From contig CAYNFH010000006.1 in assembly GCA_964396385.1 (NCBI GenBank), forward strand, positions 1-63,014: 63,014 bases of DNA, given 5' to 3'. Positions 4,171 through 61,087 of the stretch are shown piece after piece. How positions within the stretch are numbered: position 1 is the stretch's first letter; each line of letters starts with the position of its first letter. The translations under genes and the position numbers were made by a program. The notes below the pieces were generated by a model, which was not told the DNA's origin, searched no databases, and saw only the letters and a list, made by a program, of their open reading frames with translations. Source of the stretch: an uncultured Chthonomonadaceae bacterium (GTDB lineage Bacteria > Armatimonadota > Chthonomonadetes > Chthonomonadales > CAJBBX01).

Positions 4171-4389
4171 ATGGTTCGATGCCGAAACTGCCGGGAGCTT
4201 ATCACACCACAGGCCAGCGTATGCCGCTACTGCGGCGCCCAGCAGGTCAATACGGGCCAGCTCGCCCTGCTGAGCATCCTGCTCTGCATGGCCGTCGCCG
4301 CCTGCATGTGGCTGAGCAGCGCCGGCCTCCTCTCTCGCGCCATCTCGACGTTCCAGGGGCAGCCGCCGGCTGCAGTGCGGCACCAGTGA
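4171..4389 (+). CDS. Small zinc-ribbon membrane protein
   Basis: CRNC...CRYCG followed by a hydrophobic helix; AGGAGG RBS at 4158-4163. Confidence 0.65.
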   Translation: MVRCRNCRELITPQASVCRYCGAQQVNTGQLALLSILLCMAVAACMWLSSAGLLSRAISTFQGQPPAAVRHQ

Positions 4390-4478
4390 CGGAGGACGGA
4401 GCCTGGAGTCCGGGCCTGAACACCCAATTCCGGCCCGGACTCCGGGTTCATGCTCCCTGCTTCCTCCTTCCCCTACTG
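4388..4478. repeat. Micro-array element: GACGGAG x2, 12-bp hairpin, C-rich arm
   Basis: GGAGTCCGGGCC (4405-4416) / GGCCCGGACTCC (4432-4443) perfect inverted repeat with GANTC in both arms, flanked by degenerate heptamers. Confidence 0.55.
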
Positions 4479-4571
4479 CCCGTTCGGCAAACAGAATAGC
4501 TTCTGGCGCGTACCAGGATATGACGGCCTGGTCCGTTAATTCCATTCTCAATGAGAGAGGAAGGTACGCGC

Positions 4572-6050
4572 ATGAAGATTCGCCTTATCTTTCCGGCACT
4601 GGCGGCAGGCATCGTGCTTCTGCCGTTGGCCGCCTGGGCCGCGGGACCGCAGGGTGTCGACACCGGCTGGGTGATCGACAACAACGGTAATCCCCTCTTT
4701 ACCTCCAGCAAGGCGTCTGCATTGAGCGCAGCGCAGGTGGGCTGGGTGCGGATGGAGTTCCGCCTCATCCCGGGCCACTCCACGTGGGACAGCACGATGC
4801 TGGGTTACTACGACACGGTGGTAAACACCGCCCGCAACCAGGGGTTGCAGGTACTGGGGCTCATCGACGGCGGCTCCTGGCCGGGCAGTCAGAGTGATTG
4901 GTGCGCCAATAACTGGGAGAACACCGGCGGCAACGGTGACAACACCTATATCAACAACTTTGCCGCTTCGGCCGCGGTGACGATCATCCAGCACTTCCAC
5001 GACCGCGTGAAGGTGTGGGAGATCTGGAACGAGCCCAATGCCTGGACGTCCAATCCCTCCCCCGGCGTCTTTACGGGCGGCACCTACATGTACCCGTCCA
5101 ACTTCAGCCAGCTTCTGGCGAACACGTACGCGGACGTGAAGGAGTACAATGGGCTGCAGGATGTGACCATCCTCTCGGGCGGCGTCTTCGGCCACAGCAT
5201 CGGGGGTGTCTACAGCTACCAGAACGCGGGCGCGCAGTACATAGACAACGTAGGTATAAACACCGTGGGCTCCTTCGCGTATACCAAGAGCCACTGGGGC
5301 ACCTACCCGCTGGACGCGATCGGCCAGCATATCTACATCGACCAGGGCGGCACCACCACCTCCGGCGAATTCCAGCAGTACATCTCCTGGGTCCGGCAGG
5401 CCTACACCAAGTACGAGGGGAGCGGCACCGGCAAGCGGTCCTTCATCACGGAGTTCGGGTGGACCACCAGCAGCGTCTCCCAGAGCACGCAGGACCAGGA
5501 CATGAATATCTCGTTCGGGGTGATAGAGGGCGGCAACGTCAACTATGTGCAGACCGCCATCTGGTTCCAGTGGCAGGACAACCCGGCCGCCGGCCTTTAC
5601 TATGGGGTAATCGATTCGAGCGGCAATCCCAAGGTCTGCTACAACGACTTTGTTTACTGGGAAGAGTACCAGGGGTTCAACGCAGATGGCAGCATAAACT
5701 CCAGCATTCAGAACTACTTCAACGCACGTGGCCAGCCTGCCATGGGAGACCCGTACGACAACGGCGGCGGCCCGTTTGTACACACCTGGAGCGGCAACGT
5801 CTATTCGGCCCAGGTGCAGGACTCCAACGGTGGCTCCCACCTGCGGCTCTGTATGATGACCTCCTCGCTGGGGACCTTTGAGGTCAACGACATCCATGGG
5901 ATGTGGGACGTGTACCTCAACAAGGGCGGCATCGGGTACTTTGGGCCGCCCAAGAACAACGAGTATACGTCCGGAAGCGGCACCCGCCAGGATTTCCAGT
6001 CCGGCCACTACATGACGTGGGATTCCACGAACGGGGTGGTGGTGCATTAG
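4572..6050 (+). CDS. Secreted clan GH-A glycoside hydrolase (GH5/GH39-like) with C-terminal LGFP-like repeat
   Basis: Signal peptide, WEIWNEP acid/base, ITEFGW nucleophile, C-terminal GPPKNNEY...RQDFQSGHYMTW. Confidence 0.75.
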   Translation: MKIRLIFPALAAGIVLLPLAAWAAGPQGVDTGWVIDNNGNPLFTSSKASALSAAQVGWVRMEFRLIPGHSTWDSTMLGYYDTVVNTARNQGLQVLGLIDGGSWPGSQSDWCANNWENTGGNGDNTYINNFAASAAVTIIQHFHDRVKVWEIWNEPNAWTSNPSPGVFTGGTYMYPSNFSQLLANTYADVKEYNGLQDVTILSGGVFGHSIGGVYSYQNAGAQYIDNVGINTVGSFAYTKSHWGTYPLDAIGQHIYIDQGGTTTSGEFQQYISWVRQAYTKYEGSGTGKRSFITEFGWTTSSVSQSTQDQDMNISFGVIEGGNVNYVQTAIWFQWQDNPAAGLYYGVIDSSGNPKVCYNDFVYWEEYQGFNADGSINSSIQNYFNARGQPAMGDPYDNGGGPFVHTWSGNVYSAQVQDSNGGSHLRLCMMTSSLGTFEVNDIHGMWDVYLNKGGIGYFGPPKNNEYTSGSGTRQDFQSGHYMTWDSTNGVVVH

Positions 6051-6248
6051 GTGAGAGATGAGGGGTTCGAGGACGAGGACGTCAATAGGATGACAAAGTG
6101 AAAGGTCAGAGGTGAGGGGTGACGGCTCGGGGTACAGCAGGATAACCGTTGCCGGGCTTGGAACCTGGTGTAGCACTGTCCATGGATCCGATAAGTGACA
6201 AGGTGAACGGATTCCGGTTCACCTTGTCACCCTGTCACCCTGTCATCC
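6049..6248. repeat. Octamer micro-array element (GTGACAAG / CACC(T/C)TGT family)
   Basis: Degenerate G-rich run 6049-6125; perfect 14-bp inverted repeat 6195-6208 / 6217-6230 around GGATTCCG; extra CACCCTGT units follow. Confidence 0.75.
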
Positions 6249-6250
6249 GC

Positions 6251-7489: not shown

Positions 7490-7538
7490 GCGGGTTTGAG
7501 TAGGGGAGGGGCCGCCGCGAAGCGGCCCTGGCTCCGTT

Positions 7539-9266: not shown

Positions 9267-9281
9267 GGGATGAGTTCTCTT

Positions 9282-9341
9282 TGGTTGATGGTTGATGGTT
9301 GATGGTTGATGGGCCGGAACCTGAGGCCATCAACCATCAAC
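9282..9341. repeat. Head-to-head heptamer arrays (TGGTTGA)x4 / (CCATCAA)x2
   Basis: Directly visible tandem units in inverted orientation around GCCGGAACCTGAGG. Confidence 0.85.
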
Positions 9342-9350
9342 TCTCACCTA

Positions 9351-10265: not shown

Positions 10266-10268
10266 CTC

Positions 10269-10924: not shown

Positions 10925-10952
10925 GACGGAAGACGGAAGACGGACGACGGAC
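10925..10952 (+). repeat. Heptamer array GACGGA(A/C) x4
   Basis: GACGGAA GACGGAA GACGGAC GACGGAC in the divergent intergenic region. Confidence 0.75.
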
Positions 10953-14226: not shown

Positions 14227-14235
14227 CGGGACGGA

Positions 14236-16252: not shown

Positions 16253-16320
16253 TGACCTGGTGACCTGGTGACCTGGTGAGTAATGCAATCCGTTCACCTT
16301 GTCACCTTGTCACCAGGTCA
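16253..16320. repeat. Head-to-head octamer arrays (TGACCTGG)x3 / (TCACCTTG)x2 + TCACCAGG
   Basis: Same family as 6195-6248; its last three bases are the stop codon of the adjacent permease. Confidence 0.8.
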
Positions 16321-17140: not shown

Positions 17141-17220
17141 TGGAGTAGTTGGGTAATGGAGTGCTGGAGGAATGGATATCCGGATTCCAATGCCCCAGAA
17201 CTCCAACGCTCCATCACTCC
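17141..17220. repeat. Head-to-head octamer arrays (TGGAGTNN)n / (TCCANNNC)n with TCCGGATTCC core
   Basis: Degenerate units visible on both sides; fills most of a divergent intergenic region. Confidence 0.75.
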
Positions 17221-17237
17221 TCTCCGGGAGGCCTGAC

Positions 17238-21635: not shown

Positions 21636-21696
21636 GCAGCAGGCAAAATCCCTGCTGCTAGGCGGCTTTCAGCCGTGTGCCCGCCGACGCGGGCAC
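21636..21696 (-). repeat. 61-bp double-hairpin REP, downstream flank of tnpA
   Basis: Stems GCAGCAGG/CCTGCTGC and GTGCCCGC/GCGGGCAC; inverted homologue at 22155-22215. Confidence 0.8.
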
Positions 21697-22131
21697 TTGG
21701 GATTCCCGTTCCCTTGGTTCCTCGGTCTTTTCGGCGTTGGGCCAGATTGTGCCGTTGGCGTGGTGCTCTTTCTGTTGGTTGATGTAGTTGATGACCTTGG
21801 CCTTCTCGTGGGGACTGACGCTGAACGCGCCGTAGCTGCCCTGCCACTTGAAGGTACCTGCGGGGACGAGTTCTTCGTTGGCAAAGTGGGAGGAGGAGCC
21901 CTTGACGGCTTCCATCAGGTCGGCTATGGTGATGGTGTTGGAGAGATTCACCAGGAGGTGAACGTGGTCTTCGGTGCCGCCGAGCGCGAGCACATCACAG
22001 TGCTTCTTGGCGCAGATCGCCTCTATCTCCCGGTACATCCTGCGCTCAATGGAACTGCTGATCAGCGGCAGTCGATCCCAAATGGCCCAGATGAAGTGGA
22101 CATGTACGCGGACCTTGTTCTGCGGAGACAC
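21658..22131 (-). mobile_element. tnpA: IS200/IS605-family Y1 HUH transposase, REP-associated (RAYT-like)
   Basis: DHVHLL (HUH), WQGSYGAFSVS, catalytic Y in NYINQQKEHH; no tnpB; inverted REPs on both sides. Confidence 0.88.
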
Positions 22132-24642: not shown

Positions 24643-24803
24643 GGCGTTCAGGCGTTCAGGTGATTCCTGTCGATACTGGAGTACGGCGACAGTTCACAGA
24701 CTCCCTCCCCGCGCCGTCCACTGGATTCCGAAACGTGAAGCCTCTATAATGGCGTTGAGCGTATGATTGCCGATCACCTGAACGCCTGAACGCCTGAACG
24801 CCC
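24643..24803. repeat. Head-to-head octamer arrays (GGCGTTCA)x2 ... (CCTGAACG)x3 bracketing a divergent promoter region
   Basis: Arms at 24643-24660 and 24775-24803; the right arm abuts the ATG at 24804. Confidence 0.8.
24722..24750 (+). promoter_or_regulatory. Candidate sigma-70 promoter of the sugar ABC operon
   Basis: TGGATT - 17 bp - TATAAT; the -35 box overlaps a GANTC site. Confidence 0.55.
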
Positions 24804-28252: not shown

Positions 28253-28315
28253 CGGTAAATGAGTGTACGCCCGCGTTCGGCAGGTACACCCATTTACCCG
28301 TTTACCCTTTTACTC
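28253..28315. repeat. 63-bp GGGTAAAN / TTTACCCN element, copy 1
   Basis: Aligns without gaps to 54614-54676. Confidence 0.75.
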
Positions 28316-32371: not shown

Positions 32372-34188
32372 GGCCGTCGGCGCCTCCGGCAATTCTGCTA
32401 GCTGGGCTCCTCGGTCTCGTACCCACACTGCTGATCGGATGCAGGCGTGGGGCCGCACGGCCCCCTGCTCGGGCTGCCGCACCGCTTATCCGCTTCACGG
32501 ACGTCGCTCAAAGCGCCGGTCTGCGCTACCGCTGGAGCATCCCTGGGAAGCGGCCCCTTAACATCCTCCAGACCATCGGCAACGGCTGCGCTTTCCTGGA
32601 CTACGACCAGGACGGCAATCTGGACGTGCTCCTGGTAGGACCCAAGCTCGCCCTCTACAGAGGAAACGGCCAGGGCCACTTCACCAACGTGACGCACGAG
32701 ACCGGCCTGGACAGGTTCACCGGCCATTTCCTGGGCTGCGCCGTGGGAGACTACGACAACGATGGCTATCCAGACCTGTACATCTCCGGCTATCGCACAG
32801 GCCTGCTGCTGCACAACGAAGCTGCGGAGGCGTTCAGGCGTTCAGGCGTTCAGGACACGAAGAACGGCAGTCCGAAGCCCGAAGTCCGCAGTCCGAAATC
32901 CGGTCTCACGACTCACGACTCACGACTCACGACTCCAGCATCACCCCCTCACAGGTTCTTCCGGGATGTAACAAGGCAGTCCGGGCTCAGGCCGCAGCCG
33001 TGGGGGACGAGCTGCGCCTTCGCGGAATCCATACCCGGAACGGGACGGCTCGATCTGTTTGTATGCAACTACCTGAGCTTCGGCCCCAACACGCAGCCGC
33101 AGCTCTGCACCACCGCCGGCGGCATCTCCACCGCCTGCGGCCCACGCTACTACCGGCCCGTACGTGGAACCCTCTGGCGCAACCTGGGCGGCGGCCGGTT
33201 CGCGGGCGCGACCAATGCGAGCGGGGCCGTGGGCGCGGGCAAAGCCCTTGGCGCGGCCTGGGCGGACTTCGATGGCTCCGGCGCGCCCGGCCTGGCGGTT
33301 GCCAACGACGAGATGCCTGGCGACCTGTTCTGGCCGGTCCGGAGCGGCGCGGCGGTCCGCTACAGGAATATCTCCAGGGTCGCCGGCACGGCGTTCGACC
33401 GGGACGGAGCGGCTTACGGCGGTATGGGGGCAGACTGGGGAGACGTAGACAACGATGGAAGACTGGACCTGTTCGTCGCCAGTTTCCAGAATGAGCCGAA
33501 GCCCCTGTTCCACAACGACGGCAACCGGATCTTCAGCGACATCGGGCCTGGATCCGGAATCGGGGCGGCCCGCCAATACGTGGCCTTCGGATGCAAGCTG
33601 CTGGATATTGACAATGACGGGTGGCTGGACCTGGTCATCTCCAACGGCCATGTCCAGGACAACATCGCGGAGATAGACCATTCCACCACTTACCGGCAGC
33701 CGACGCTGCTCTACCACAGCCTCGGGATCGTCCGCGGAACACTGCGTTACGAGGACGTAACGGCGGTGGCCGGACCGGACCTGGCACGGCCCATTGTAGG
33801 GCGGGGACTGGTCACGGGCGACTACGACAACGACGGCCGCATGGACATCCTGGTGGTCGATTCAGAGGGCGGGCCGTTGCTCCTCCACAACGTGTGCAGC
33901 CCGACCTGGCACTGGCTCGGGGTCCGGCTCATCGGCAAGAAGAGCAACCGGGATGGCTACGGGGCGCTCCTGACGGCGAAGGCGGGCGGCCGAACACTCA
34001 CGCAGCTCTGCCACGCGGACGGCTCCTATCTCTCCTCTTCAGACTCTCGCGTCCACTTCGGCGTCGGTGCGAGCACGAAGGTAGAGGCGCTGACCGTACG
34101 GTGGCCCGGCGGCGCAACCACCACCTACCGCAACATCCCGGCCGACCGCTACATCACCCTGCGCGAAGGCGACCCGCGACCCGAGTAG
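32368..34188 (+). CDS. CRTAC1-family protein (FG-GAP/VCBS repeats + ASPIC/UnbV) with in-frame repeat insert
   Basis: Repeated DYDNDG.PDL motifs, SNRDGYGA, SYLSSSDSRVHFG, VRWPGG; lipobox-like LIGC. Confidence 0.9.
   Translation: MRPSAPPAILLAGLLGLVPTLLIGCRRGAARPPARAAAPLIRFTDVAQSAGLRYRWSIPGKRPLNILQTIGNGCAFLDYDQDGNLDVLLVGPKLALYRGNGQGHFTNVTHETGLDRFTGHFLGCAVGDYDNDGYPDLYISGYRTGLLLHNEAAEAFRRSGVQDTKNGSPKPEVRSPKSGLTTHDSRLTTPASPPHRFFRDVTRQSGLRPQPWGTSCAFAESIPGTGRLDLFVCNYLSFGPNTQPQLCTTAGGISTACGPRYYRPVRGTLWRNLGGGRFAGATNASGAVGAGKALGAAWADFDGSGAPGLAVANDEMPGDLFWPVRSGAAVRYRNISRVAGTAFDRDGAAYGGMGADWGDVDNDGRLDLFVASFQNEPKPLFHNDGNRIFSDIGPGSGIGAARQYVAFGCKLLDIDNDGWLDLVISNGHVQDNIAEIDHSTTYRQPTLLYHSLGIVRGTLRYEDVTAVAGPDLARPIVGRGLVTGDYDNDGRMDILVVDSEGGPLLLHNVCSPTWHWLGVRLIGKKSNRDGYGALLTAKAGGRTLTQLCHADGSYLSSSDSRVHFGVGASTKVEALTVRWPGGATTTYRNIPADRYITLREGDPRPE
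32828..32952 (+). repeat. Stack of four micro-array families in frame within the CRTAC1 gene
   Basis: (AGGCGTTC)x3, (AGTCCGA)x5 degenerate, (CTCACGA)x4, CATCACCCCCTCAC. Confidence 0.88.
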
Positions 34189-45750: not shown

Positions 45751-46413
45751 GTGAGTGAATTGGGGCAGATAGTCGTTCTCAATGGTACTCCACGGTCCGG
45801 GAAGTCCAGCATTGTGGCGGCCATCCAGGAGACATTTGAGGGCGTCTGGATCAACCTGGGGGTAGACCGGTATATGCAGATGACGCCGAAGAGGTATCTA
45901 CCGGGAATCGGGCTGCGGCCGGGGGGAGAGCAGCCGGACCTGGAGCCGCTCATTGCCCGCATGTACGCCGCCCTGTACGAGAGTATGGCCGCCCACAGCC
46001 GGCTGGGGCTGAACGTGGTGGCCGACGTGGACCACCATGATGCCTACTCCGGGCCGCTCGGCATCCTCCCGGACTGCGCCCGCCGCCTGGAGGGCCTGCC
46101 CGCCCTGTTCGTCGGCATCCGCTGCCCGATTGCGGTGATCATGGAGCGCCGCCGCTCCACCGGCTGGAATCAAGACCTGCCGGAGGATGCTCCACCGCCC
46201 CCGCCGGTCCTCCGCTGGCAGGAGGAGGTCCACAATCACGGTATCTACGACCTGGAGGTGGACACCTCCCTCCTCACGCCCGAGCAGTGCGCCGAAGCCA
46301 TCCATTGGCACCTCGCCGAAGGCCCTCCTCCCACCGCTTTCCAGCAACTTGGAACGACGCTGCCGGATGCCTCACGCAAAGACGCAAAGAGCGCAAAGAA
46401 GGCCGAACCCTAG
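45751..46413 (+). CDS. Chloramphenicol phosphotransferase (CPT)-family P-loop kinase
   Basis: IVVLNGTPRSGKSS, LFVGIRCP, VHNHGIYDLEVDTS; C-terminus runs into a repeat arm. Confidence 0.85.
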   Translation: MSELGQIVVLNGTPRSGKSSIVAAIQETFEGVWINLGVDRYMQMTPKRYLPGIGLRPGGEQPDLEPLIARMYAALYESMAAHSRLGLNVVADVDHHDAYSGPLGILPDCARRLEGLPALFVGIRCPIAVIMERRRSTGWNQDLPEDAPPPPPVLRWQEEVHNHGIYDLEVDTSLLTPEQCAEAIHWHLAEGPPPTAFQQLGTTLPDASRKDAKSAKKAEP

Positions 46414-46531
46414 CCGGGTTCCGTGGGCAGAAAGCATTTAGTACGGTTCCGGTTTGGCGCCGCAAGGTTCCAGCTCCTGGCATATCAATTAAGTCCAAGA
46501 CTCCCTTTGCGCCTTTGCGTCTTTGCGTGAG
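46371..46531. repeat. MITE-like element with CGCAAAG-array arms
   Basis: Perfect 19-bp terminal inverted repeats CTCACGCAAAGACGCAAAG / CTTTGCGTCTTTGCGTGAG around an about 105-bp spacer. Confidence 0.8.
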
Positions 46532-48598: not shown

Positions 48599-49562
48599 CT
48601 ACACCCGCGCGCAGGAGGTGCAGGACGCCGTCGCGGGGCATGACGCCAGGTCCGCCTACCTGGCGGGCGGAACGAACCAGCTCGACCTGATGAAGCTGCA
48701 CGTCCATACGCCCGCCCACCTCATCGACATCAACGGCCTGCCGCTGGCGCAGATCGAGGAGCGCGGCGACGGCGTGCGCATCGGCGCGCTGGTCCGTAAC
48801 AGCGACCTGGCCTACCACCCGCTCATCAAGCAGCGATACCCGGTACTCTCCCAGGCGCTGCTGGCGGGGGCCAGCCCGCAGCTCCGCAACATGGCCACCG
48901 TGGGCGGGAACATCATGCAGCGCACCCGCTGCTCCTACTTCCGCGATACGGCCCTGCCCTGCAACAAGCGGGAGCCGGGGACCGGCTGCTCCGCCATCGA
49001 CGGGTACAACCGGATGCACGCGGTGCTCGGTACCAGCCCGCACTGTATCGCCGTGATGCCCTCCGACATGTGCGTGGCGCTGTATGCGCTGGACGCCGTG
49101 GTGCAGACGCGAGGCCCCCAGGACGAGCGGACTATCCCGCTGGTCGACTTCCATAGGATGCCCGGCGACCATCCGGAGCGCGACACGGTCCTGGAGCCCG
49201 GCGAGCTCATTACATACGTGGACCTGCCCGCCCTGCCGTTTGCCGCCCGCTCCCGCTACCTAAAGGTACGGGACCGCGCGTCCTATGCCTTCGCGCTGGT
49301 CTCCGTGGCCGCCGCACTGGACGTGGAGAACGGCGACATCCGCGCGGCGCGGCTGGCGCTGGGCGGCGTGGGCACCAAGCCCTGGCGCGCGGTGGACGCC
49401 GAGAAGGCGCTGGTTGGCCGCCCGGCAGCCGAGGAGACCTACCGCGCCGCGGCGGACATCGCGATGCGGGGCGCGAGGCCGTTCAAGTACAACGCGTTCA
49501 AGGTTGAGATGGCCCGTCGCGCCATCGTTAGGACACTCTCTACCGTTGGAGCGATGACATGA
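48585..49562 (+). CDS. paoB: Aldehyde oxidoreductase FAD-binding subunit
   Basis: LAGGT, ASPQLRNMATVGGN, RCSYF..CNKREPGTGC, KVRDRASYAFA. Confidence 0.9.
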   Translation: MLPFDYTRAQEVQDAVAGHDARSAYLAGGTNQLDLMKLHVHTPAHLIDINGLPLAQIEERGDGVRIGALVRNSDLAYHPLIKQRYPVLSQALLAGASPQLRNMATVGGNIMQRTRCSYFRDTALPCNKREPGTGCSAIDGYNRMHAVLGTSPHCIAVMPSDMCVALYALDAVVQTRGPQDERTIPLVDFHRMPGDHPERDTVLEPGELITYVDLPALPFAARSRYLKVRDRASYAFALVSVAAALDVENGDIRAARLALGGVGTKPWRAVDAEKALVGRPAAEETYRAAADIAMRGARPFKYNAFKVEMARRAIVRTLSTVGAMT

Positions 49563-49579
49563 AGCACCAAGCGGTAAAA

Positions 49580-49640
49580 GACGGGAGACGGGGGACGGGT
49601 GACGGATTCCGGATTCCGTCCGTCCACCGTCCTCCGTCCT
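49580..49640. repeat. Head-to-head heptamer arrays (GACGGGN)x4 / (CCGTCCN)n with double GGATTCC core
   Basis: Core GACGGATTCCGGATTCCGTC at 49601-49620. Confidence 0.85.
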
Positions 49641-49665
49641 TGGTCTCCTCCAAAGGAGGACCAGC

Positions 49666-52053
49666 ATGATCCAGCCCGATTTGCCGCTGATCGGCGAGCC
49701 CCTGGACCGCGTCGACGGACGCCTGAAGGTGACGGGCGGGGCGCGCTACACGGCCGACATGCCGGTGGAGAACCTGGCTTACGGCGTACTCATCACCAGC
49801 ACCGTCGCCAGCGGCCGGATCCGCGAGATGGACACCTCGGCTGCCGAGCGGCTGCCGGGGGTGCTGGCAATCCTCACCCCGTTCAATGCCCCACGCATTC
49901 CCGGCGGCAGCATCCAGGAGCAGGGTGCCAATCGGCAGCCGGGAGCGGGCGAGCGCGCGAGCGGGCGAGGGGGCGAAAACGCGACCGCTGATTCTGGTCA
50001 TTCACCTGAACGCCTAAACGCCCGAATGCCTGAGTCCGGCCATCAGCCATCAACCACCAACCATCAACCATCTGGCGGGCAGCAGCGCCGGCCCCCGGAT
50101 CGAAAGGTCCACCTGCTGCAGGAGACCGACGTTTTCTACAGCGGCCAGCCCATCGGCGTGGCCATCGCGGACACCTTCGAGCGCGCCGTCCACGCCGCCT
50201 CGGCCGTGCGAGTCCGGTACGAGACCAACCGGCCCGCGACCTCGCTGGAGCAGGAGCTGCGCCGCGCGTTCGTGCCCAAAGCGGCCGGACCCGGGCTTCC
50301 GGCCGACAGCCGCCACGGGGACCTGGAGTCTGGCCTGCGGCAGGCGGCGGTGCGCGTGGAGGAGGTGTACGGCACGCCGGTGGAGACGCACAACCCCATG
50401 GAGGTGCACGGCACTATTGCCATGTGGGAAGGCGACCGGCTGACGCTGTACGACGCCACACAGGGCGTCTTCCCGGCCCGCCAGCGGATCGCCGCCCTCT
50501 TCGGAGTGCCGCCGGACCACGTCCGGATCATCTCCTACTTTGTGGGAGGTGGCTTCGGCAGCAAGGGGCCGGTCTGGTCGCACATCCCGCTGGCGGCCAT
50601 GTCCGCGCGCCACGTGGGCCGGCCCGTGAAGCTGCTCCTCTCCCGGCCCCAGCAGTTCGGACCGGTGGGCTTCCGCGGGGAGACACGCCAGACGGTGAGC
50701 CTGGGGGTGGATCACAGCGGGGGGCTTACCGCCCTCCGGCACGAGATTGTGGCGCAGACCTCCGTATTCGACGAGTTCATCGAGCCGGCCGGCGCGTCGG
50801 CGCGGATGCTCTACGCCTGTCCCAATATCGCCACCAGCCACCGGGGCGTGCGGCTCAATAGCGGCACTCCCTCCTTCACACGCGCGCCGGGCGAGGCGCC
50901 CGGCGTGTTCGCGCTGGAGTGCGCCATGGACGAGCTGGCCTACCGGCTCAACATGGACCCCATCGAGCTGCGGCTGCGCAACTATGCGGAGTCGGATCCG
51001 GACAGCGGCCACCCCTGGTCCAGCAAGTCCCTGCGCGAGTGCTATCGGGTGGGGGCAGAGCGGTTCGGCTGGTCCCGGCGCGCCGCCCAGCCACGCGCAA
51101 CGATGGACGGCGACGCGCTGGTGGGGTACGGCATGGCGACCGCCACCTATCCGTCCCGGCGCATGCCGGCGTCCGCACTGGCGCGGATGGAGCCTGACGG
51201 CCGCGTGGTGGTCCGAAGCGGTACGGCGGAGATCGGCACGGGCACCTACACGGTGATGTCTCAGGTCGCGGCCGAGGCGCTGGGCGTGCCTACGGAGCAA
51301 GTCCGCTTTGAGTTGGGCGATACGGAGCTGCCGGAGGCGCCCATCTCGGCTGGATCCATGACCTGCGCCAGCGTCGGCTCGGCGGTCTACCTGGCCGCGC
51401 AGGCGCTCCGGAGCAAGCTGGCGCAGCTCGCCATTGGGGACGCGCGCTCGCCGCTCCACGGGCTGAGCGAGCCGGAAATGGCGGCGGGCGAGGGCCGGCT
51501 GTTCCTCAAGTCGGACCCGTCCCGCGGGGAGCGCTATACCGACCTGCTGTCCCGTAGCGGACAGCGGAGGATGGAGGCGCGGGTGGACGCAAGGCCCGGC
51601 GAGGAGCAGCAGAAGTACTCCATGCACGCCTTCGGTGCGCAGTTCGCGGAGGTTCACGTGGATCCAGACCTTGGTACGGTGCGACTCGCACGGTACGTGG
51701 CCTCGTTTGCGTGCGGCCGGATCCTGAACGCAAAGACGGCGCGCAGCCAGTTCCAGGGTGGAATCGTCTGGGGCATCGGGATGGCGCTCTCGGAGGAGAC
51801 GATCACCGATCCGCGCTACGGCAGGATTGTGAACGCGGATCTGGCGGAGTACCACGTGCCGGTCAACGCCGACGTCTGCCCAATAGAGATCCTGTTTGTG
51901 GACGAGCAGGACCCGTACGTGAACCCCATCGGCGTGAAGGGGCTGGGGGAGATCGGCATCGTGGGAGTTCCGGCCGCTATCGCCAACGCGGTCTACCATG
52001 CGACGGGGAAGCGGATCCGCGAGCTGCCCATTACGCCGGATAAGCTGCTGTGA
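49666..52053 (+). CDS. paoC: Aldehyde oxidoreductase molybdopterin-binding subunit with in-frame repeat insert
   Basis: RVDGRLKVTGGARY, VGGGFGSKG, RAPGE, EIGTG, KGLGEIG; insert about 49941-50072. Confidence 0.92.
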   Translation: MIQPDLPLIGEPLDRVDGRLKVTGGARYTADMPVENLAYGVLITSTVASGRIREMDTSAAERLPGVLAILTPFNAPRIPGGSIQEQGANRQPGAGERASGRGGENATADSGHSPERLNARMPESGHQPSTTNHQPSGGQQRRPPDRKVHLLQETDVFYSGQPIGVAIADTFERAVHAASAVRVRYETNRPATSLEQELRRAFVPKAAGPGLPADSRHGDLESGLRQAAVRVEEVYGTPVETHNPMEVHGTIAMWEGDRLTLYDATQGVFPARQRIAALFGVPPDHVRIISYFVGGGFGSKGPVWSHIPLAAMSARHVGRPVKLLLSRPQQFGPVGFRGETRQTVSLGVDHSGGLTALRHEIVAQTSVFDEFIEPAGASARMLYACPNIATSHRGVRLNSGTPSFTRAPGEAPGVFALECAMDELAYRLNMDPIELRLRNYAESDPDSGHPWSSKSLRECYRVGAERFGWSRRAAQPRATMDGDALVGYGMATATYPSRRMPASALARMEPDGRVVVRSGTAEIGTGTYTVMSQVAAEALGVPTEQVRFELGDTELPEAPISAGSMTCASVGSAVYLAAQALRSKLAQLAIGDARSPLHGLSEPEMAAGEGRLFLKSDPSRGERYTDLLSRSGQRRMEARVDARPGEEQQKYSMHAFGAQFAEVHVDPDLGTVRLARYVASFACGRILNAKTARSQFQGGIVWGIGMALSEETITDPRYGRIVNADLAEYHVPVNADVCPIEILFVDEQDPYVNPIGVKGLGEIGIVGVPAAIANAVYHATGKRIRELPITPDKLL

Positions 52054-52058
52054 AGAAC

Positions 52059-52195
52059 GGTTGAAGGTTGAGGGTTGAGGGTTGAAAGTACGCTGTACAT
52101 ATTGGGCCACTCGTCACAAGGAAGTTACTATTCTTGCAGGTTGTAGCGGGTCGACTCCGGCCTTCAACCTTCAACCTTCAACCTTCAACTTTTAA
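52059..52195. repeat. Head-to-head heptamer arrays (GGTTGAR)x4 / (CCTTCAA)x4-5
   Basis: Arms 52059-52086 and 52161-52195; GACTCCGG directly precedes the right arm. Confidence 0.85.
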
Positions 52196-52207
52196 CCCAC
52201 ACTCAAT

Positions 52208-53458
52208 ATGAACCGTCTCAGAGACATTTTCGAGCTTTACGAAACAATGCAGCCCGGGGAGCGGGGGACGCTGGCCACCGTGTTCCGGACGGAGGGCTCC
52301 ACGTACCGCCGTACGGGCGCGCGAATGCTGGTGACCGCCTCCGGCCGAACGGCGGGGGCTATCAGCGGCGGCTGCCTGGAGCGGGACGTGCTGGAGCGCG
52401 CCGGCCGTGTGATGAGGACGGGCATGCCCCTCGTGGTCTGCTACGACGGCGCGGCGGACGATCCTGTCTTCGGGCTCGGCACGGGATGCCGCGGCACGGT
52501 AGAGGCGCTGGTAGAGCCGGTCTGTGGCGCCGACCCGGACGGGCTGCTCCACTGGCTCAAGGAGGGGCTGGTCCGGCGGGAGCCGGGTGCCGTCGCCACC
52601 ATTGTACAGGGCTCCTGTTCCATCCCCCTGGGGCTGTGCGCCGCGGTCCGAGGTTCGAGGGAGCAGATCCTCCCGCCCAACCCCCAGCCCTCCAACCTCA
52701 GCTTCTCCCTGGCGTGCTGGCTGACCGGCCGCGCACAGGAGGCGCTGTATGAAGGAAGCGGCGGGATTCGCTCGGCGCGGTTCCATGGCGAGCCGGTCCA
52801 GGCGTTTGTCGAGTACCTGCCCGCGCCCACGTCGCTGGCCATCTTCGGCGCGGGCGACGATGCGCTGCCCCTGGCCCGCTGCGCAAGGCAGCTCGGCTGG
52901 TACGTCGCGGTCGTGGACCACCGGCCGGCATACGCGAACTCGGCCCGGATTCCGGAGGCGGACTCCGTTGTCTGCGCCCATGGTGAGGAGGCGGTGGAGC
53001 TGGTGGGCCCGTGCGACGCGGCGGTAGTGATGACCCACAACTTCCAGGCCGACCAGGAGCTGCTGCGCGCGCTGCTCCCACGGCCCCTGAAGTACCTGGG
53101 CGTGCTGGGCCCGCGGGACCGCACGGAGCGGCTGCTGGAGGGAACGGGCGTTCAGGCATTCATGCGTTCAGGCGACCCTCCGGCCCCCAAGTCTGAGGAA
53201 GCAGGCGTTCAGGCGTTAGGGCGGTCAGGTGGAATGGATTACCTCTACGCGCCGGCGGGGCTGGATTTGGGCGCGGAATCTCCCGCCGAAATAGCGCTTT
53301 CTATCGTTGCGGAGATCCAGTCGGTCCTCGCCGGCCGCGCCACCCCCGGCCTCCGGGACCGGCCGGGACCGATACACAGCCGGCAGCCATCAGTCGTCAG
53401 TCGTCGGTCGTCGGTCGTCAGTCGGCAGTCAGCAGCATGCACGCGGCACGCGGCATGA
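52208..53458 (+). CDS. xdhC: XdhC/PaoD-family molybdenum cofactor maturation protein, with repeat inserts
   Basis: GSTYRRTGARM, ISGGCLE, IFGAGDDA, YLGVLGP, YAPAGLDLGAESPAEIALSI. Confidence 0.9.
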   Translation: MNRLRDIFELYETMQPGERGTLATVFRTEGSTYRRTGARMLVTASGRTAGAISGGCLERDVLERAGRVMRTGMPLVVCYDGAADDPVFGLGTGCRGTVEALVEPVCGADPDGLLHWLKEGLVRREPGAVATIVQGSCSIPLGLCAAVRGSREQILPPNPQPSNLSFSLACWLTGRAQEALYEGSGGIRSARFHGEPVQAFVEYLPAPTSLAIFGAGDDALPLARCARQLGWYVAVVDHRPAYANSARIPEADSVVCAHGEEAVELVGPCDAAVVMTHNFQADQELLRALLPRPLKYLGVLGPRDRTERLLEGTGVQAFMRSGDPPAPKSEEAGVQALGRSGGMDYLYAPAGLDLGAESPAEIALSIVAEIQSVLAGRATPGLRDRPGPIHSRQPSVVSRRSSVVSRQSAACTRHAA

Positions 53459-53549
53459 TGCACGCGGTGGCACCGCCAGATGAGGGCGGACTTCGAACTC
53501 CGGACTTCCGAATCCGGGATCACCCCTTCACCCCCTCACCCCCTCATCC
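53377..53549. repeat. Compound micro-arrays spanning the xdhC/mocA junction
   Basis: (CAGTCGT)x8 degenerate, GCACGCG units, (CGGACTT)x3, GAATCC, (CACCCCYT)x3. Confidence 0.8.
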
Positions 53550-54592: not shown

Positions 54593-54613
54593 GCAAAGAG
54601 ATAGTGTGTGCAC

Positions 54614-54676
54614 GGGTAAAAGGGTGTACGCCGGATTCCGGAAGGTACACCCTTTTACCCATTTACCCATTTACCC
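54614..54676. repeat. 63-bp GGGTAAAN / TTTACCCN element, copy 2, with CCGGATTCCGG core
   Basis: Inverted GGGTAAAAGGGTGTAC / GTACACCCTTTTACCC plus tandem ATTTACCC; supplies the sufU stop codon. Confidence 0.85.
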
Positions 54677-56012: not shown

Positions 56013-56090
56013 TACGAGGAGTACGCGATCTTAAGGAGTTCTGCAAGAACGGCCGCTATAACGTAGACGGCCAGGAGGCCCAGCAACATC

Positions 56091-56492
56091 TTGAGAACGG
56101 AGAGGCGGCGTCCCTGCTTCCAGCGCACGCCGATGTGCAGTGCCCAGAGGATGAGGTGGGTCACGTTGGCCAAAGAGATTGTCTGGTACTATCCGCGCGA
56201 TGTCAGGCGGGATGGCCCTGACACCGATGTGCTGTCCGACTGGCCGCACGCCAATGACATATCGGACGTCTCAGACCTCCTCCGGGAATACGTAGATACT
56301 CCCCGGGAGCAGCTTCTTGAGCGTGAGTTCGCCAACGACCGCTGGGGGCTGGCCGACGTTCTACGCGCCGCCGACCGTCGCATCGGTCTTCGCGGGCTGC
56401 GTAAGGTAGGAGAGAGGGTGCAGAATCCGGCGGTGTGGCTCATCCTGGCGCGGCGCGGCGTAGTGGCTGGAGAACGGGAGCCAGTCGAATGA
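56091..56492 (+). CDS. Hypothetical protein, N-terminus uncertain or truncated
   Basis: C-terminal SDLLREYVDTPR...DRWGLADVLRAADRRIG looks coding; ATGA overlap with the next gene. Confidence 0.45.
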   Translation: MRTERRRPCFQRTPMCSAQRMRWVTLAKEIVWYYPRDVRRDGPDTDVLSDWPHANDISDVSDLLREYVDTPREQLLEREFANDRWGLADVLRAADRRIGLRGLRKVGERVQNPAVWLILARRGVVAGEREPVE

Positions 56493-57337: not shown

Positions 57338-57411
57338 AGGGCTGCGCCGCGGTCAACAGGACTAGGGCCGGGATAGACAGAATTCCGGGCATAGCGGGCG
57401 GTTACGGGAAG

Positions 57412-59709
57412 ATGCATCCACTCCCATTCATCGCGATTCTCTCTGTCATGACGACTTCGCTCTCTGTTGCGGTCGCAGCGCAGCCGCTTAGCGGCACGGC
57501 GCCCCTTACGGGCGATCAGGACCGGGCTTTGGCGATGGTGGACGGGATCAGCCGCTACCTGGACCGGGCTACGTCCGAAGCGGCTGCGCGGCGGTCCGAG
57601 CTCTGGAAGCGAGACACCAGCTCTCCGGCCGCCTACGAGCAGTCCATCGCGCCGAACCGGGAGCGGCTCCGCGCGATACTGGGGCTGACGGATGGGCGCG
57701 AGCCGCCTCACCTGGAAGTTGTCGGGGAGCCCGGCCGGGACGTGCTGCTCGCCCGCGGCGCGGCCTGCCGCATCTACATGGCGCGCTGGAGCGCGCTCCA
57801 CGGCGTGGATGGCGAGGGGTTGCTGCTGATTCCGAACGGGCCTGTCAGAGCCGACGTGGTGGCGCTGCCGGACTGCGACCAGACGCCGGAGGCACTGGCC
57901 GGACTGGAGCCCGGGATATCACCCGACGCTCAGTACGCGCGACGCCTGGCCGAGAACGGCTGCCGCGTGCTGGTGCCGTGCCTCATCGATCGCGGCACGG
58001 CGTTCACCTCCAGCTCGCCCATTCACAAGACGGACGTGCCGCATCGCGAATTCATCTGGCGGGCCGCGTACGAGCTGGGCCGCACCATGGCCGGGTATGA
58101 GGTGCAGAAGGTTCTCGCCGCCGTGGACTGGTTCCGGTCGGACGCGCGCCGGCCCGTGGGAGTTATTGGCTACGGGGAAGGGGGCCTTATCGCACTCTAC
58201 GCCGCGGCCGTGGACACCCGTATCGACGCGGCGCTTGTCTCCGGATACTACGGGCCGCGAGAGCGGCTCTGGACCGAACCGATCTACCGCAACGCGTTCG
58301 GACTACTGCGCGAGTTCGGCGACGCGGAGATAGCCAGCCTCGTGGCGCCGCGAAGCCTGGTCGTGGAGGACGCCGACCAGCCCAAGGTCGAGATCCCACC
58401 CAACCACGGGGGCCAGGCCGCGCCGGGCGCGATCGTGACGCCGCCGGCCGATGCCGTGAGGTCCGAGGTCGAGCGTGCCAACCGCTTCACCAGCGGCCTC
58501 CCGGGCGGGCGCGTCCAGCTCATCGAGAGCCGCACGCCGGGATCGGATGCGGCGCTTACGTCGTTCCTGGAGGCGCTGGGTGTCCGGACCGCCCTCACGC
58601 CATCCGGTCCTCCTCCGAAAGCGCCGCGGAGTTCTCCAGACCCAAAGGCCCGGCTGCGAAGACAGTACGACCAGATCCTGGACCACCTGCAGCGGCTCAT
58701 GCGCGTCGCGCCCAATCGCAGGGCGGAGCTGTGGGAGACGGCGACGCGGCGAGCGGGCGACGCGGCGAGCGGGCGAGCGGAGGCGTGGCGGGAGGCGGTG
58801 GGGCCGCTGCGGGAGCGGTTCTGGGACCAGGTGATCGGCCGGCTGCCGCCCGCCGATATGCCGCTTAACCCGCGGAGCCGGCTGGTGTATGACACGCCGA
58901 AGTTCAAAGGGTATGAAGTGGTCCTCGACGTCTATCCGGACGTCTTCGCCTACGGCATCCTGCTGGTCCCAAAAGACCTGAAGCCGGGCGAGCGCCGGCC
59001 GGTAGTGGTGTGCCAGCACGGGCTGGAGGGGCGGCCGCAGGACGTGGCGGATCCAAGCGTCAACAACCCATCGTACAACCAGTTTGCCTGCCGCCTTGCG
59101 GAGCAGGGATTCGTCACCTATGCGCCGCAGAACCCCTACATCGGGGGCGACCGGTTCCGGCTGCTGCTCCGGAAGGCGCAGCCGCTGGGACTGACTCTCT
59201 TCTCCTTCATCGTCCGTCAGCACGAGCGCACGCTGGAGTGGCTGGCGAGCCAGCCCTTTGTCGACCCGGAGCGCATCGCGTTCTACGGCCTGAGCTACGG
59301 CGGCAAGACGGCCATGCGGGTACCGGCGGTGCTGGAGCGGTACTGTCTCTCCATCTGCTCGGCGGACTACAACGAGTGGATCTGGAAGAACGTGGACTTC
59401 CTGAGCCCCTACTGCTACCTGTACCTTAACGAATACGACATGCCGGAGTGGAACCTGGCCAACACGTTCAACTATGCGGAGATGAGCTGGCTGATCTGCC
59501 CCCGGCCCTTTATGGTGGAGCGGGGCCATCATGACGGGGTGGCGCCGGACGAGTGGGTGGCGTACGAGTATGCGCGCACCCGGCGGCAGTACGACCTGCT
59601 GGGACTGGGCGACCGGACGGAGATGGAGGTATTCGACGGGCCGCATACCATCCACGGAGTGGGGACCTTCGCCTTTCTCCACCGGCATCTGCGCTTCCCG
59701 GCGCAGTAG
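57412..59709 (+). CDS. Secreted tandem alpha/beta hydrolase (dienelactone hydrolase / abhydrolase-like)
   Basis: Two hydrolase domains; second has CQHGLEG, YGLSYGGK, HDGV, GPHTIHG; octamer insert 58741-58780. Confidence 0.8.
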   Translation: MHPLPFIAILSVMTTSLSVAVAAQPLSGTAPLTGDQDRALAMVDGISRYLDRATSEAAARRSELWKRDTSSPAAYEQSIAPNRERLRAILGLTDGREPPHLEVVGEPGRDVLLARGAACRIYMARWSALHGVDGEGLLLIPNGPVRADVVALPDCDQTPEALAGLEPGISPDAQYARRLAENGCRVLVPCLIDRGTAFTSSSPIHKTDVPHREFIWRAAYELGRTMAGYEVQKVLAAVDWFRSDARRPVGVIGYGEGGLIALYAAAVDTRIDAALVSGYYGPRERLWTEPIYRNAFGLLREFGDAEIASLVAPRSLVVEDADQPKVEIPPNHGGQAAPGAIVTPPADAVRSEVERANRFTSGLPGGRVQLIESRTPGSDAALTSFLEALGVRTALTPSGPPPKAPRSSPDPKARLRRQYDQILDHLQRLMRVAPNRRAELWETATRRAGDAASGRAEAWREAVGPLRERFWDQVIGRLPPADMPLNPRSRLVYDTPKFKGYEVVLDVYPDVFAYGILLVPKDLKPGERRPVVVCQHGLEGRPQDVADPSVNNPSYNQFACRLAEQGFVTYAPQNPYIGGDRFRLLLRKAQPLGLTLFSFIVRQHERTLEWLASQPFVDPERIAFYGLSYGGKTAMRVPAVLERYCLSICSADYNEWIWKNVDFLSPYCYLYLNEYDMPEWNLANTFNYAEMSWLICPRPFMVERGHHDGVAPDEWVAYEYARTRRQYDLLGLGDRTEMEVFDGPHTIHGVGTFAFLHRHLRFPAQ

Positions 59710-59719
59710 GGAGAACCGT

Positions 59720-61036
59720 ATGTCGGACACACGAATCACGCGGCGGCGGTTATTGGGGGACGCGGCTGCCTTCGCGATACCGGCCATCGTACCGGCCCAC
59801 GTGATAGGCTGGCGCGGCCGGATGGGCGCGAACGACCGGATCGTGATCGCCAACATCGGCGTGGGGGGCATGGGCCGGACCCACGTTGCTCCGGACACGG
59901 CCGCCCTGTGCGACGTGGACTCCACCCGGCTGGCCGACGTCGCCAAGAGTGTGATGGCCGGCGGAAAGCGTACGGCTGCCTCGCCGCCAATTCTGTACGG
60001 CGACTATCGCCACATCCTGGACAGGAGCGACATCGACGCGGTGACCATCGGGACGCCGGACCACTGGCACGCGATGATGACGGTGCACGCCTGCCAGGCC
60101 GGCAAGCACGTGTACAGCGAGAAGCCCACGGCCCGCACGCTGGCGGAGGGCCGGGCCATGGTGCGCGCCGCCCGCCGGTACAACCGCGTCGTGCAGATCG
60201 GGGCCCAAGGCCGGTCTAATCCCAACGCCCGCGCGGCCTGTCAGTACGTGCGCAACGGCCAGCTTGGCCGTGTTACGCGCGTGGACATCTACCATCCAGA
60301 CAATCCGACTACGACGGAGGGACCGCGTCCGTATCCCGTCCCGCTTACGTTGGACTGGGACCTGTGGCTGGGGCCTGCGAAGTACCGGCCGTACCATCCG
60401 CTGTACCACCCCGCACGCTTCCGGTGGTTCATGGACCTGGGCGGCGGCCAGATCCGCGATAGGGGCAACCACGCCATGAGTATCGCCTGCTGGCTGATGA
60501 GCCACGACAACTACCGCGGGCTGGTGACGGTGGAGGCGCGCGGAGAGCCACAGACGCAGGGCATGTTCGATGTGCCGCTGAAGCTGGCCGTTACCTGGAC
60601 GATGCGGGACCCGGAGTGGACCCTCACGTGGACGCAAGGGGAGGTGCCCAAGACGCACGGGCTCTGGGGCGCGACGTACCATGGAACCCGGGACAGCCTG
60701 ATTGTGATCCAGGGCGACAACGCCTGCGATACGGAGGAGAAGGCGAAGCAGTACACTCCGCCGCCCGGGCGCGAGGTGTACCTGCATCCCACGGATCCGT
60801 CCCTCAGCGCCACGGAGCGGCACCGGCAGAACTGGCTGGACTGCATCCGTACGGGCAAGCGGCCGGCGATGGACGTGGAGATAGGCTACCGGACGGTGAC
60901 CTACTGCATCCTCGGAAACATGGCGTATACGCTGGGCCGCAGGCTCACTTACGACATGGGCCGGGAGCGGTTCGTGAACGATACAGAGGCGGACGCCTTG
61001 ATGCAGTGGCCGTACCGCGCGCCGTGGCACCTGTAA
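59720..61036 (+). CDS. Gfo/Idh/MocA oxidoreductase, Tat signal
   Basis: TRRRLL, IGVGGMG, TPDHWH, KHVYSEKP, LDWDLWLGPA. Confidence 0.93.
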   Translation: MSDTRITRRRLLGDAAAFAIPAIVPAHVIGWRGRMGANDRIVIANIGVGGMGRTHVAPDTAALCDVDSTRLADVAKSVMAGGKRTAASPPILYGDYRHILDRSDIDAVTIGTPDHWHAMMTVHACQAGKHVYSEKPTARTLAEGRAMVRAARRYNRVVQIGAQGRSNPNARAACQYVRNGQLGRVTRVDIYHPDNPTTTEGPRPYPVPLTLDWDLWLGPAKYRPYHPLYHPARFRWFMDLGGGQIRDRGNHAMSIACWLMSHDNYRGLVTVEARGEPQTQGMFDVPLKLAVTWTMRDPEWTLTWTQGEVPKTHGLWGATYHGTRDSLIVIQGDNACDTEEKAKQYTPPPGREVYLHPTDPSLSATERHRQNWLDCIRTGKRPAMDVEIGYRTVTYCILGNMAYTLGRRLTYDMGRERFVNDTEADALMQWPYRAPWHL

Positions 61037-61044
61037 GCCGTCAG

Positions 61045-61087
61045 CGGACGACGGACGATGGACCACAGACGACCCCGGATTCCCGGG
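61045..61087 (+). repeat. Heptamer array (CGGACGA)x4 degenerate followed by CCCGGATTCCCGGG core
   Basis: Same family as 10925-10952 and 49580-49640. Confidence 0.7.

Follow-up and report, generated by a model that had tools for sequence, protein, structure and literature searches.

Handed pairs of short tandem arrays, some of them enclosing PF05635 genes, in a soil Armatimonadota genome

We analysed a 63,014-nt stretch of DNA (the window), which is contig C6 of G000, a draft metagenome-assembled genome (MAG) from soil (6.62 Mb in 398 contigs, 65% G+C, 96.5% complete). The window and the rest of the genome are rich in short tandem arrays of mostly 7- or 8-nt units, many of which stand in pairs as the two arms of a compact element. 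We found that the arms have a nearly invariant handedness, with the G-rich arm 5′ and the C-rich arm 3′, and that units, an apex motif and between-arm cores recur from locus to locus. A whole element is inserted in frame in a conserved gene, and arrays of the same kind enclose genes of the PF05635 family across the phylum. The arrays may be the arms of a large and diversified family of palindromic elements similar to the intervening sequences (IVS) of 23S rRNA, an interpretation to which we give about an even chance.

Arrays and their handedness

A genome-wide scan with Tandem Repeats Finder (TRF; at least 3 copies and at least 85% matches) revealed a large excess of arrays, 919 of period 7 and 575 of period 8, next to 63 of period 6 and 36 of period 9; under the same criteria 2 Mb of sequence simulated with an order-5 Markov model gave two period-7 arrays and one period-8 array. 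A separate custom detector found 2,077 arrays once overlaps were dropped (before that, array counts were 1,279 for heptamers, with 134 families, 725 for octamers, with 110, and 76 for nonamers, with 47). No contig of the 398 is free of arrays, which sum to 0.82% of the genome; an array has a median of 3.4 copies and at most 7.5. One unit can recur at as many as 143 loci, as in the biggest family, AACACCTG (143 arrays), which is followed by ACGACTC (122), ACCTCTC (108) and AACCTTC (90); the ten largest families make up 56% of heptamer and 65% of octamer arrays. Units thus recur between loci beyond chance, as had been claimed in the original prediction, a reading of the window made from its letters. 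The families are also linked to each other: 94% of heptamer families with at least five arrays have a neighbour one substitution away, versus 56% (maximum 75%) for letter-shuffled units, and the corresponding values for octamer families are 89% and 36%. Most leading units lack GGG runs (GAGTCGT, GGTGAGA, GGTTGAA, CAGGTGTT) and a few have them (GGGGTGA, GGGGAGA). A rough gene caller places 1,342 arrays between genes and 735 inside predicted coding sequences; roughly a quarter of intergenic regions contain elements, which abut both start and stop codons.

In the window TRF returned 79 rows, the strong ones mostly of period 7 or 8, and it recovered the predicted unit families in their places: TGGTTGA at 9282, GGTTGAA at 52059, GACGGAA at 10925, TCAGTCG at 53390, AGTCCGA at 32869, CTCACGA at 32905, ATCGAAA at 25767, TCCTGCC at 9882, GGCGTTCA at 24643, TCACCCTG at 6219, ACCCATTT at 28288 and 54649, GAGCGGGC at 49943 and ACGCAAAG at 46374. 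Assembly artefacts can be dismissed: contigs built independently from four sequencing runs (three studies) match the arrays without a single difference, as in X1 over 48960-50109, X5 over 49852-50243 and X6 over 51949-52180. The runs that contain the window stretch are soil metagenomes, and what appear as joints in the contig coverage are contigs of other array loci in the same genome. Contig ends were not enriched near arrays (24 observed, 21.5 expected). The closest relatives of one window protein come from Chthonomonadaceae (64% identity), Capsulimonadaceae and Armatimonadales MAGs.

We scored handedness at 216 two-armed sites obtained with a lenient partner search. The G-rich arm came first at 193 and the C-rich arm at 13, with 10 ties (binomial p about 3e-42), which is not the 50:50 expected of random polarity; the same sites scored as G+T-rich versus A+C-rich gave 200, 14 and 2 ties. 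Strict criteria (same-family inverted pairs within 400 nt) yielded 87 sites, 77 G-first, 8 C-first and 2 tied. C-first exceptions fall mainly into the AAAATTG (8 sites) and ACAGACC (4 sites) families. At the ten two-armed sites named in the original prediction, direct reading places the G- or purine-rich arm 5′ in ten of ten, with the caveats that the left arms at 6195 and 28253 have only 1.5-2 units, that 17141 is degenerate, that 46371 is a G/C tie and purine-first, and that the strict detector calls only three of the ten. The claim that the reverse order does not occur therefore stands for these window sites but not for the genome, given the 13 C-first sites. Similarly, the predicted stacking of different families with the same polarity was seen at 32828 and 49941 but not at 25725 and 53377, where several stacked units lack G/C skew and polarity is unclear.

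The order was upheld in co-directional, convergent (31:0) and divergent (16:0) intergenic regions alike. Arrays adjacent within 100 nt stood in the order G then C in 290 cases and C then G in 17, and the same was true of non-complementary neighbours (76 and 4; within 60 nt, with different periods or at least 3 mismatched positions). Distance mattered: same-family inverted pairs less than 100 nt apart were G-first in 72 cases versus 8, while above 250 nt G-first and C-first pairs were about equally frequent. No polarity was found between 250 and 6,000 nt, and ordinary genes flanked by like arrays are thus probably chance occurrences. Of 33 two-armed sites in predicted genes, 18 had an in-frame coding signal on both sides, that is, strong third-position G+C in the same frame on both flanks; 14 of these were G-first, one C-first and three tied. 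Selection on untranslated regions therefore cannot be the whole reason for the handedness.

A site made of a G arm followed by a C arm reads alike on both strands, so its handedness is a real property of the site that survives inversion. As the geometry is invariant under reverse complementation, it can be inherited by all descendants of a founder, and a low p-value alone does not demand a directional enzyme. The two strands differ in other respects. Lone arrays (n = 636; approximate starts) lie a median of 18.5 nt from the gene that precedes the G strand at its 5′ end and 64.5 nt from the gene that follows. G strands contain start codons in 72% of arrays, stops in 59% and Shine-Dalgarno-like words in 45%, while C strands contain start codons in 13 of 1,286 (1%) and the tested Shine-Dalgarno-like words in none; a control with shuffled units showed that this contrast between strands is in part an effect of composition.

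Centres, cassette genes and insertions

The centres between arms are of three kinds: a short apex or spacer, a core of about 70-85 nt, or a gene cassette of about 370-460 nt. Short spacers typically bear CCGGAWTCCGG or part of it. This 11-mer occurs 182 times, compared with 6-21 times for five palindromes of like composition. Of 1,368 arrays, 417 have the head motif CCGGA no more than 15 nt 3′ of the G strand; the corresponding counts are 69 for the 5′ side and 36 for control windows. Among the relatives, G004 has 114 copies of the 11-mer and no other genome more than 17.

The cores are specific to the arm family. Twenty-one cores of the GGTTGAA family, 67-83 nt long and found in both orientations, share the framework AGT.GGC..TACAAAGC ... 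GGCTCCGG, and six GGGGTGA-type cores align well with one another. BLAST clustering of 86 cores gave only small clusters of at most six members, so the cores are kept in length and framework more than in sequence. RNAalifold detected no consensus structure in the 21 GGTTGAA-family cores. The entire window gave no matches to Rfam at gathering thresholds, although no search aimed at a template RNA was made; the cores of about 74 nt are therefore not a curated RNA family. At three further places (C327 ~170-230, C11 ~26070-26120 and C65 ~2040-2060 of G000) CCAATTTGAGACAATGTCTCAC-like short repeats lie beside arrays and are followed by a conserved stretch of about 60 nt. No gene is predicted in the 289-nt spacer between GGGGTGA-type arms at C7:38005-38293; this spacer contains CAATAGCACCGGGGTTT... 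as a direct repeat and might correspond to a structured RNA.

The original prediction had also raised the idea of array-flanked cassettes, and this is borne out outside the window. All five PF05635 (23S_rRNA_IVP, four-helix-bundle) genes of G000 and one of its two PF13366 (GxxExxY) genes lie between inverted arrays. The spacers are 372-457 nt for four PF05635 cassettes and 387 nt for the GxxExxY cassette, with arms of 20-35 nt, and the PF05635 cassettes are G-first in four cases and C-first in one. The cassettes that we examined adjoin predicted protein genes (the 23S rRNA genes of G000 were not covered). At the level of the order, 10 of 12 PF05635 loci from 12 genera passed the strict detector, 8 of them G/R-first and 2 C/Y-first, and the other two show imperfect G-first arrays by eye. 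These loci include genomes without arrays elsewhere in the sampled DNA (G022, G006, G018, G013). In a sample of the phylum, 47 of 121 genomes have a PF05635 gene at E 1e-20 or better; of 25 further loci, 18 have the gene enclosed by inverted repeats of at least 16 nt whose arms stand 315-634 nt apart. In these 18 the arms are tandem 7- or 8-mers with genome-specific units, and 17 are G-first by hand count, L226 being a near tie. By eye, CACAGAG-type inverted short repeats flank the GxxExxY gene in G000, G004, G015, G028 and G008.

Among solved structures, the PF05635 protein of G000 has a single match, the Xanthomonas campestris protein 2GSC (E 2.4e-20). The family is described as resembling Avd, the accessory protein of diversity-generating retroelements (DGRs), with 2GSC as its structural representative (PMC10053308), and Avd itself as a barrel of five subunits that carries positive charge and is akin to S23 ribosomal proteins (bioRxiv 10.1101/2023.10.23.563531). 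A DGR is not supported for G000: the Avd-like PF05635 gene is present, and a PF00078 search found no reverse transcriptase. Two side observations concern cassette arrangement. In two relatives a GxxExxY gene has a PF05635 gene no farther than about 1.2 kb away, at G013:C3:264478-264828 and 266068-266382 and at G007:C174:3308-3625 and 4761-5102, which would suit a clustering of cassettes. Around the PF05635 gene of G013 at L197 (~1360-1990), scored C/Y-first, the arms are of an unusual style, nested AT-rich heptamer palindromes (TTCGGAA / TTCCGAA together with TTAATTATGCA).

Thirty relatives were sampled at 2-40 kb each. Arrays were found in G004, G012, G015, G028 and G007, one borderline array in G008 and none in the rest. 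Larger samples gave 68 arrays in 204 kb of G004, a density as in G000, with neighbouring pairs ordered G then C in 14 cases and C then G in one, and 26 arrays in 185 kb of G028 (5 and 0); the units of both genomes are largely different from those of G000. PF05635 matches numbered 11 in G004, 7 in G007, 7 in G015 and 5 in G000. Each of the six genomes with sampled arrays has at least two strong PF05635 genes, and 16 of the 30 relatives have no PF05635 match, all of them without arrays in the sampled DNA. PF05635 without sampled arrays was seen in G006, G013, G018, G022, G009 and G014.

One insertion into a gene could be verified with a homologue. In the window, the gene for a Mo-cofactor-binding dehydrogenase subunit (49666-52053) contains at 49939-50072, on the plus strand, a translated element of three arrays, (GAGCGGGC)4.2, CCTGAACG-like units and (CCATCAA)4.7, that adds 41 residues and leaves the frame open. 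BLASTP against a 64%-identical homologue opened gaps totalling 41 residues opposite residues 92-134; the insert consists entirely of array units, and its site is a low-complexity linker in the homologue. Contig X5, from an independent study, has no differences over the element. To look for empty sites, we also fused the 80-nt flanks on either side of each of 1,562 array clusters and compared the products with the same genome, self-hits dropped, G000 being the sole member of its genus among the genomes compared. Thirty-six alignments crossed the join at 78% identity or more, mostly paralogous coding repeats; four were aligned and one was informative. In this paralogue pair (C264 versus C11) one copy has (CCATCAC)4 between two TCCGG words and the other has a single TCCGG.

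Possible origins and known systems

The interpretation that the arrays are arms of an IVS-like element family, which we compare with 23S rRNA IVS and with MITEs (miniature transposable elements that have inverted repeats), would run as follows. An element would consist of a G/T-rich 7- or 8-nt array on the 5′ side, a centre, and a C/A-rich array on the 3′ side. Gene-carrying cassettes would be its full-length form, and the hundreds of gene-less pairs, as well as the lone arrays, miniature or decayed derivatives. Arm length and units would change by replication slippage together with point mutation. The polarity would be a fixed property of the lineage, inherited from a founder and proof against inversion, and selection may help to keep it: the G arm, rich in start, stop and Shine-Dalgarno-like words, would be tolerated behind genes, and the C arm, nearly without them, as a leader. 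Complementary arms may pair in RNA and be cut by RNase III, by analogy with IVS. The IVS published for one gamma-proteobacterium is described as 428-444 nt long, with a 28-bp terminal stem and an S23p open reading frame (ORF) in the loop, and as excised by RNase III; its authors cite an old idea that the ORF serves mobility (PMC4990558). The likeness thus covers terminal inverted repeats that act as a stem, a PF05635 ORF in the loop and a total of about 400-450 nt. In contrast to IVS, the cassettes here lie between or inside protein genes and not in a 23S rRNA helix (25 or 45), their stems are tandem 7-8-nt arrays in G-first order, and gene-less versions number in the hundreds.

A number of observations weigh against the IVS-like interpretation. 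About half of neighbouring array pairs are non-complementary, and the example at 32825-32940 does not fold, so a pure hairpin model fails for them. Slippage lacks direct support, since contigs cannot reveal repeat-length polymorphism. Only two filled-versus-empty comparisons are at hand, the homologue insert and the C264/C11 paralogues, and in neither was a clear target-site duplication seen. No mobilising enzyme was identified among the Y1 transposases and PF00078 proteins searched. PF05635 proteins are not known to have a catalytic activity. Of the 25 further phylum loci, one has arrays beside the gene only and six have none at the threshold, and the strict detector supports flanking arrays in only 2 of 14 GxxExxY loci. 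Because the gene calls are custom and rough, neither the spacing to starts nor the figure of 735 arrays inside coding sequences is certain; the array density of the relatives comes from samples of 2-200 kb, and related genomes are not independent. Finally, the CCGGA head accompanies 2 of 59 arrays in G004 and 0 of 23 in G028, both of which are polar. As polarity holds where the head is rare or absent, the head is not its cause: the handedness is general and the head motif is lineage-specific.

We weighed four other explanations. A PF05635 protein, perhaps together with the GxxExxY nuclease, might recognise the units and direct the polar creation, extension or copying of arms at a head site (TCCGG here), so that the element itself, and not passive slippage, would produce the arrays, and gene and arrays together would be a new class of element; we consider this unlikely. 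If true, it would give the IVS protein family a function and explain STRR-type (short tandemly repeated repetitive) sequences in cyanobacteria, Xanthomonas and other phyla. The arrays could instead be ordinary simple sequence repeats (SSRs) with long units, generated in place by slippage and sorted by selection on transcripts, which would put G-rich strands behind genes and C-rich strands ahead of them, with no mobility and no link to cassettes. Heptamer SSRs are indeed described as over-represented in many bacterial genomes, with slippage proposed as their source (PMC4692102, citing a 2007 survey), and the one-substitution network of units, the low and variable copy numbers, the closer spacing of lone arrays to the gene behind the G strand and the near-absence of starts and Shine-Dalgarno-like words from C strands would all fit. 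However, the original prediction had argued that slippage alone is not enough, and our results agree: it does not account for the same unit at up to 143 loci, for polarity between non-complementary neighbours, for the shared head motif or for cores that travel with the arms. Nor does it explain a three-array composite inserted in frame in a conserved gene, polarity inside genes, beyond the reach of untranslated-region selection, or the enclosure of PF05635 genes even in the four genomes without sampled arrays, and we regard an SSR origin as rather improbable.

The two remaining explanations invoke known kinds of enzyme. In a system like that of REPINs, hairpins formed by repetitive extragenic palindromes (REPs), and REP-associated tyrosine transposases (RAYTs), the elements would be moved as single-stranded hairpins by one or more Y1 transposases of G000, and TCCGG would then be the target or cleavage pentanucleotide 5′ of the C/A-rich array. 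G000 has six diverged IS200-like Y1 genes, each single-copy and without TnpB (L141-L146, one of them in the window at 21658-22131; the one at C21:5242-5577 has an internal TAG), and it has many strong hairpins; a C/A-rich array stands directly 3′ of TCCGG in about 30-50% of arrays, and one filled site has TCCGG on both sides of the inserted array. Against this, the six genes are not array-flanked, having at most one short array (no more than 3 copies) within 1.5 kb, and they score 62-75 bits as IS200 (cut-off 55) and at most 29.5 bits with the NCBIfam RAYT model (cut-off 80). Y1_Tnp genes are equally common in relatives without sampled arrays (G022 3, G023 3, G025 6), and G004 and G028, although their arrays are polar, carry the TCCGG head rarely or not at all. 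We therefore rejected HUH transposases as drivers, the only candidate machinery that the original prediction had seen in the window, because they are neither array-flanked nor track the arrays across relatives, and think a REPIN/RAYT-like origin very unlikely. In that prediction's own model, a dedicated enzyme would extend 3′ ends at breaks or nicks with templated G/T-rich repeats, in the manner of telomere healing, and rejoining would leave scars, sometimes with captured filler. The geometry agrees, with G/T-rich strands running 5′ to 3′ toward the junction; so do unrelated units in the arms of one site with polarity kept, the palindromic CCGGAWTCCGG at the junction, and the membership of PF05635 in the fold family of Avd, a reverse transcriptase partner (PMC10053308; bioRxiv 10.1101/2023.10.23.563531). 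However, a PF00078 (RVT_1) reverse transcriptase gave no match in G000, G004, G012, G015 or G028, the units recur genome-wide with conserved cores, unlike random breaks, and gene cassettes lie between arms in a layout conserved across the phylum. We now think this model the least likely of all.

Paired heptamers have been described before. Xanthomonas campestris and X. axonopodis carry GGGAATC heptamer arrays, about 90% of them intergenic, that lie 28 nt from the ORF behind and 160 nt from the ORF ahead and form 70-75 convergent pairs per genome (Rehm et al. 2015, PMC4692102). These arrays resemble ours in being dispersed and paired on opposite strands, in a convergent orientation that we read as the same G-first geometry, in lying nearer the ORF behind and in having no tie to insertion sequences; Xanthomonas is also the source of 2GSC. 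They differ in having one G-quadruplex-forming unit, whereas G000 has more than 240 families, mostly without G runs and with octamers too, and the published description, on which this comparison is based, mentions neither an apex motif nor conserved cores, cassette genes or in-frame insertions. In Geobacter metallireducens four or five tandem 7- or 8-nt units occur in 16-49 copies, mostly as opposite-strand pairs at variable distance; they are interpreted as regulator binding sites, and polarity and cassette genes are not described in the main text (PMC2700814). Handed heptamer pairs are therefore not new. Cyanobacterial STRR sequences, too, are tandem heptamers of several unit families that are scattered between genes; their host phylum is another one, and their units probably differ from those of this 65% G+C genome. 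The cyanobacterial stretches that we examined had 39 arrays in 156 kb, with adjacent pairs ordered G then C once, G then G twice and C then C twice; few pairs are reported in Nostoc (Rehm et al., PMC4692102).

REP/REPIN sequences and MITEs share with our elements the short extragenic palindromes, the hundreds of copies, the hairpins and the excess of gene-less over gene-carrying copies. In G000, however, no RAYT gene is flanked by repeats, and the arms, being tandem arrays, are built from many unit types and follow no single consensus; as for MITEs, inverted arms are present and one paralogue pair has TCCGG on both sides, and a cognate transposase was not found. Rickettsia palindromic elements have a conserved consensus of about 100-150 nt. 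They too are palindromic and can lie in frame in genes and be translated, for which G000 offers one homologue-verified case and 18 candidates, but our elements share with one another only unit types and the apex. Outside the supplementary tables of the Xanthomonas and Geobacter papers, our literature search retrieved no account of arrays of such scale and diversity, of the apex motif, of handedness between unrelated arms or inside genes, or of PF05635 genes enclosed by handed arrays.

Decades after they became known, the heptamer repeats of cyanobacteria (STRR), Xanthomonas and Geobacter have no agreed origin or function, and the PF05635 'IVS protein' family is widespread and unexplained outside DGRs. 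G000 ties the two together, in that near-invariant handed arms of palindromic units also enclose PF05635 genes phylum-wide. The elements shape genomes: they occupy intergenic regions, border directly on start and stop codons and in some cases add newly translated linkers to enzymes.

Sites in the window

Window sites with complementary arms fold far better than shuffled sequence (z -3.8 to -7.0). The hairpin element at 6195..6245 has a G-type arm GTGACAAG/GTGAAC, the apex CGGATTCCGG and a C-type arm (TCACCYTG)3.4; for the RNA of 6190-6250, z was -5.3 and none of 200 shuffles folded equally well. At 9282..9341, between two minus-strand genes, (TGGTTGA)4.4 and (CCATCAA)2.1 surround a 14-nt spacer with CCGGAA (z -5.0). 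The hairpin element at 28253..28313 has a short G-type arm GGTAAATGAGTGTAC that pairs with (ACCCATTT)3.2, and a further one at 54614..54676 comprises GGGTAAAAGGGTGTAC, the apex GCCGGATTCCGGAAG and (ACCCATTT)3.5 (z -7.0). Directly upstream of the Mo-subunit gene, 49579..49640 consists of (AGACGGG)3.9, the apex (CGGATTC)2.3 and (TCCGTCC)3.1 (z -3.8), and has no differences to the independent contig X1. The gap between a stop codon and the next start is occupied by 52059..52197, where (GGTTGAA)4 and (CCTTCAA)5.3 stand around a 74-nt core of the GGTTGAA-family type (z -6.5).

Arms are imperfectly complementary at 16253..16314, (TGACCTGG)3.4 followed by (TCACCTTG)2.6, and degenerate at 17141..17225, where direct reading, below the detector thresholds, gives TGGAGTAG-like octamers, the apex ATCCGGATTCC and CTCCANNN octamers. 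In a divergent intergenic region, (GGCGTTCA)2.2 and (CCTGAACG)3.2 surround a 114-nt core (24643..24802). The stacked arrays at 32828..32944 are non-complementary with polarity preserved, in the order (AGGCGTTC)3.4, (AGTCCGA)4.9, the head ATCCGG and (CTCACGA)4.4; the stretch 32825-32940 had z +0.97, with 168 of 200 shuffles folding as well. The arms (ACGCAAAG)3.1 and (CTTTGCGT)3.0 at 46374..46528, around a 105-nt core, are purine-first with a G/C tie. A nearly identical unit pair, CGCAAAGC / CTTTGCGC, occurs in an Acidobacteriota MAG (locus L019, 3798-3886), which hints at transfer or convergence of array types across phyla.

An array cluster at 53147..53546 includes GGCGTTCA-type units, (TCAGTCG)5.9, GCACGCG, CGGACTT/CCGGA heads and (TCACCCCC)3.4. 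The lone G-type array (GACGGAA)4 at 10925..10952 (plus strand) is intergenic, and at 61045..61087 the G-type array (CGGACGA)4.1 has the head CCCGGATTCCCGGG and a short complementary arm. The Y1 (HUH) transposase gene of the window, of the IS200/IS605 family and without TnpB, is on the minus strand at 21658..22131; no link to arrays was found for it. A repeat with a period unlike that of the main system, a 16-nt unit (GGCGACGCGGCGAGCG) in 2.6 copies, lies at 58739-58780 within a predicted hydrolase gene.

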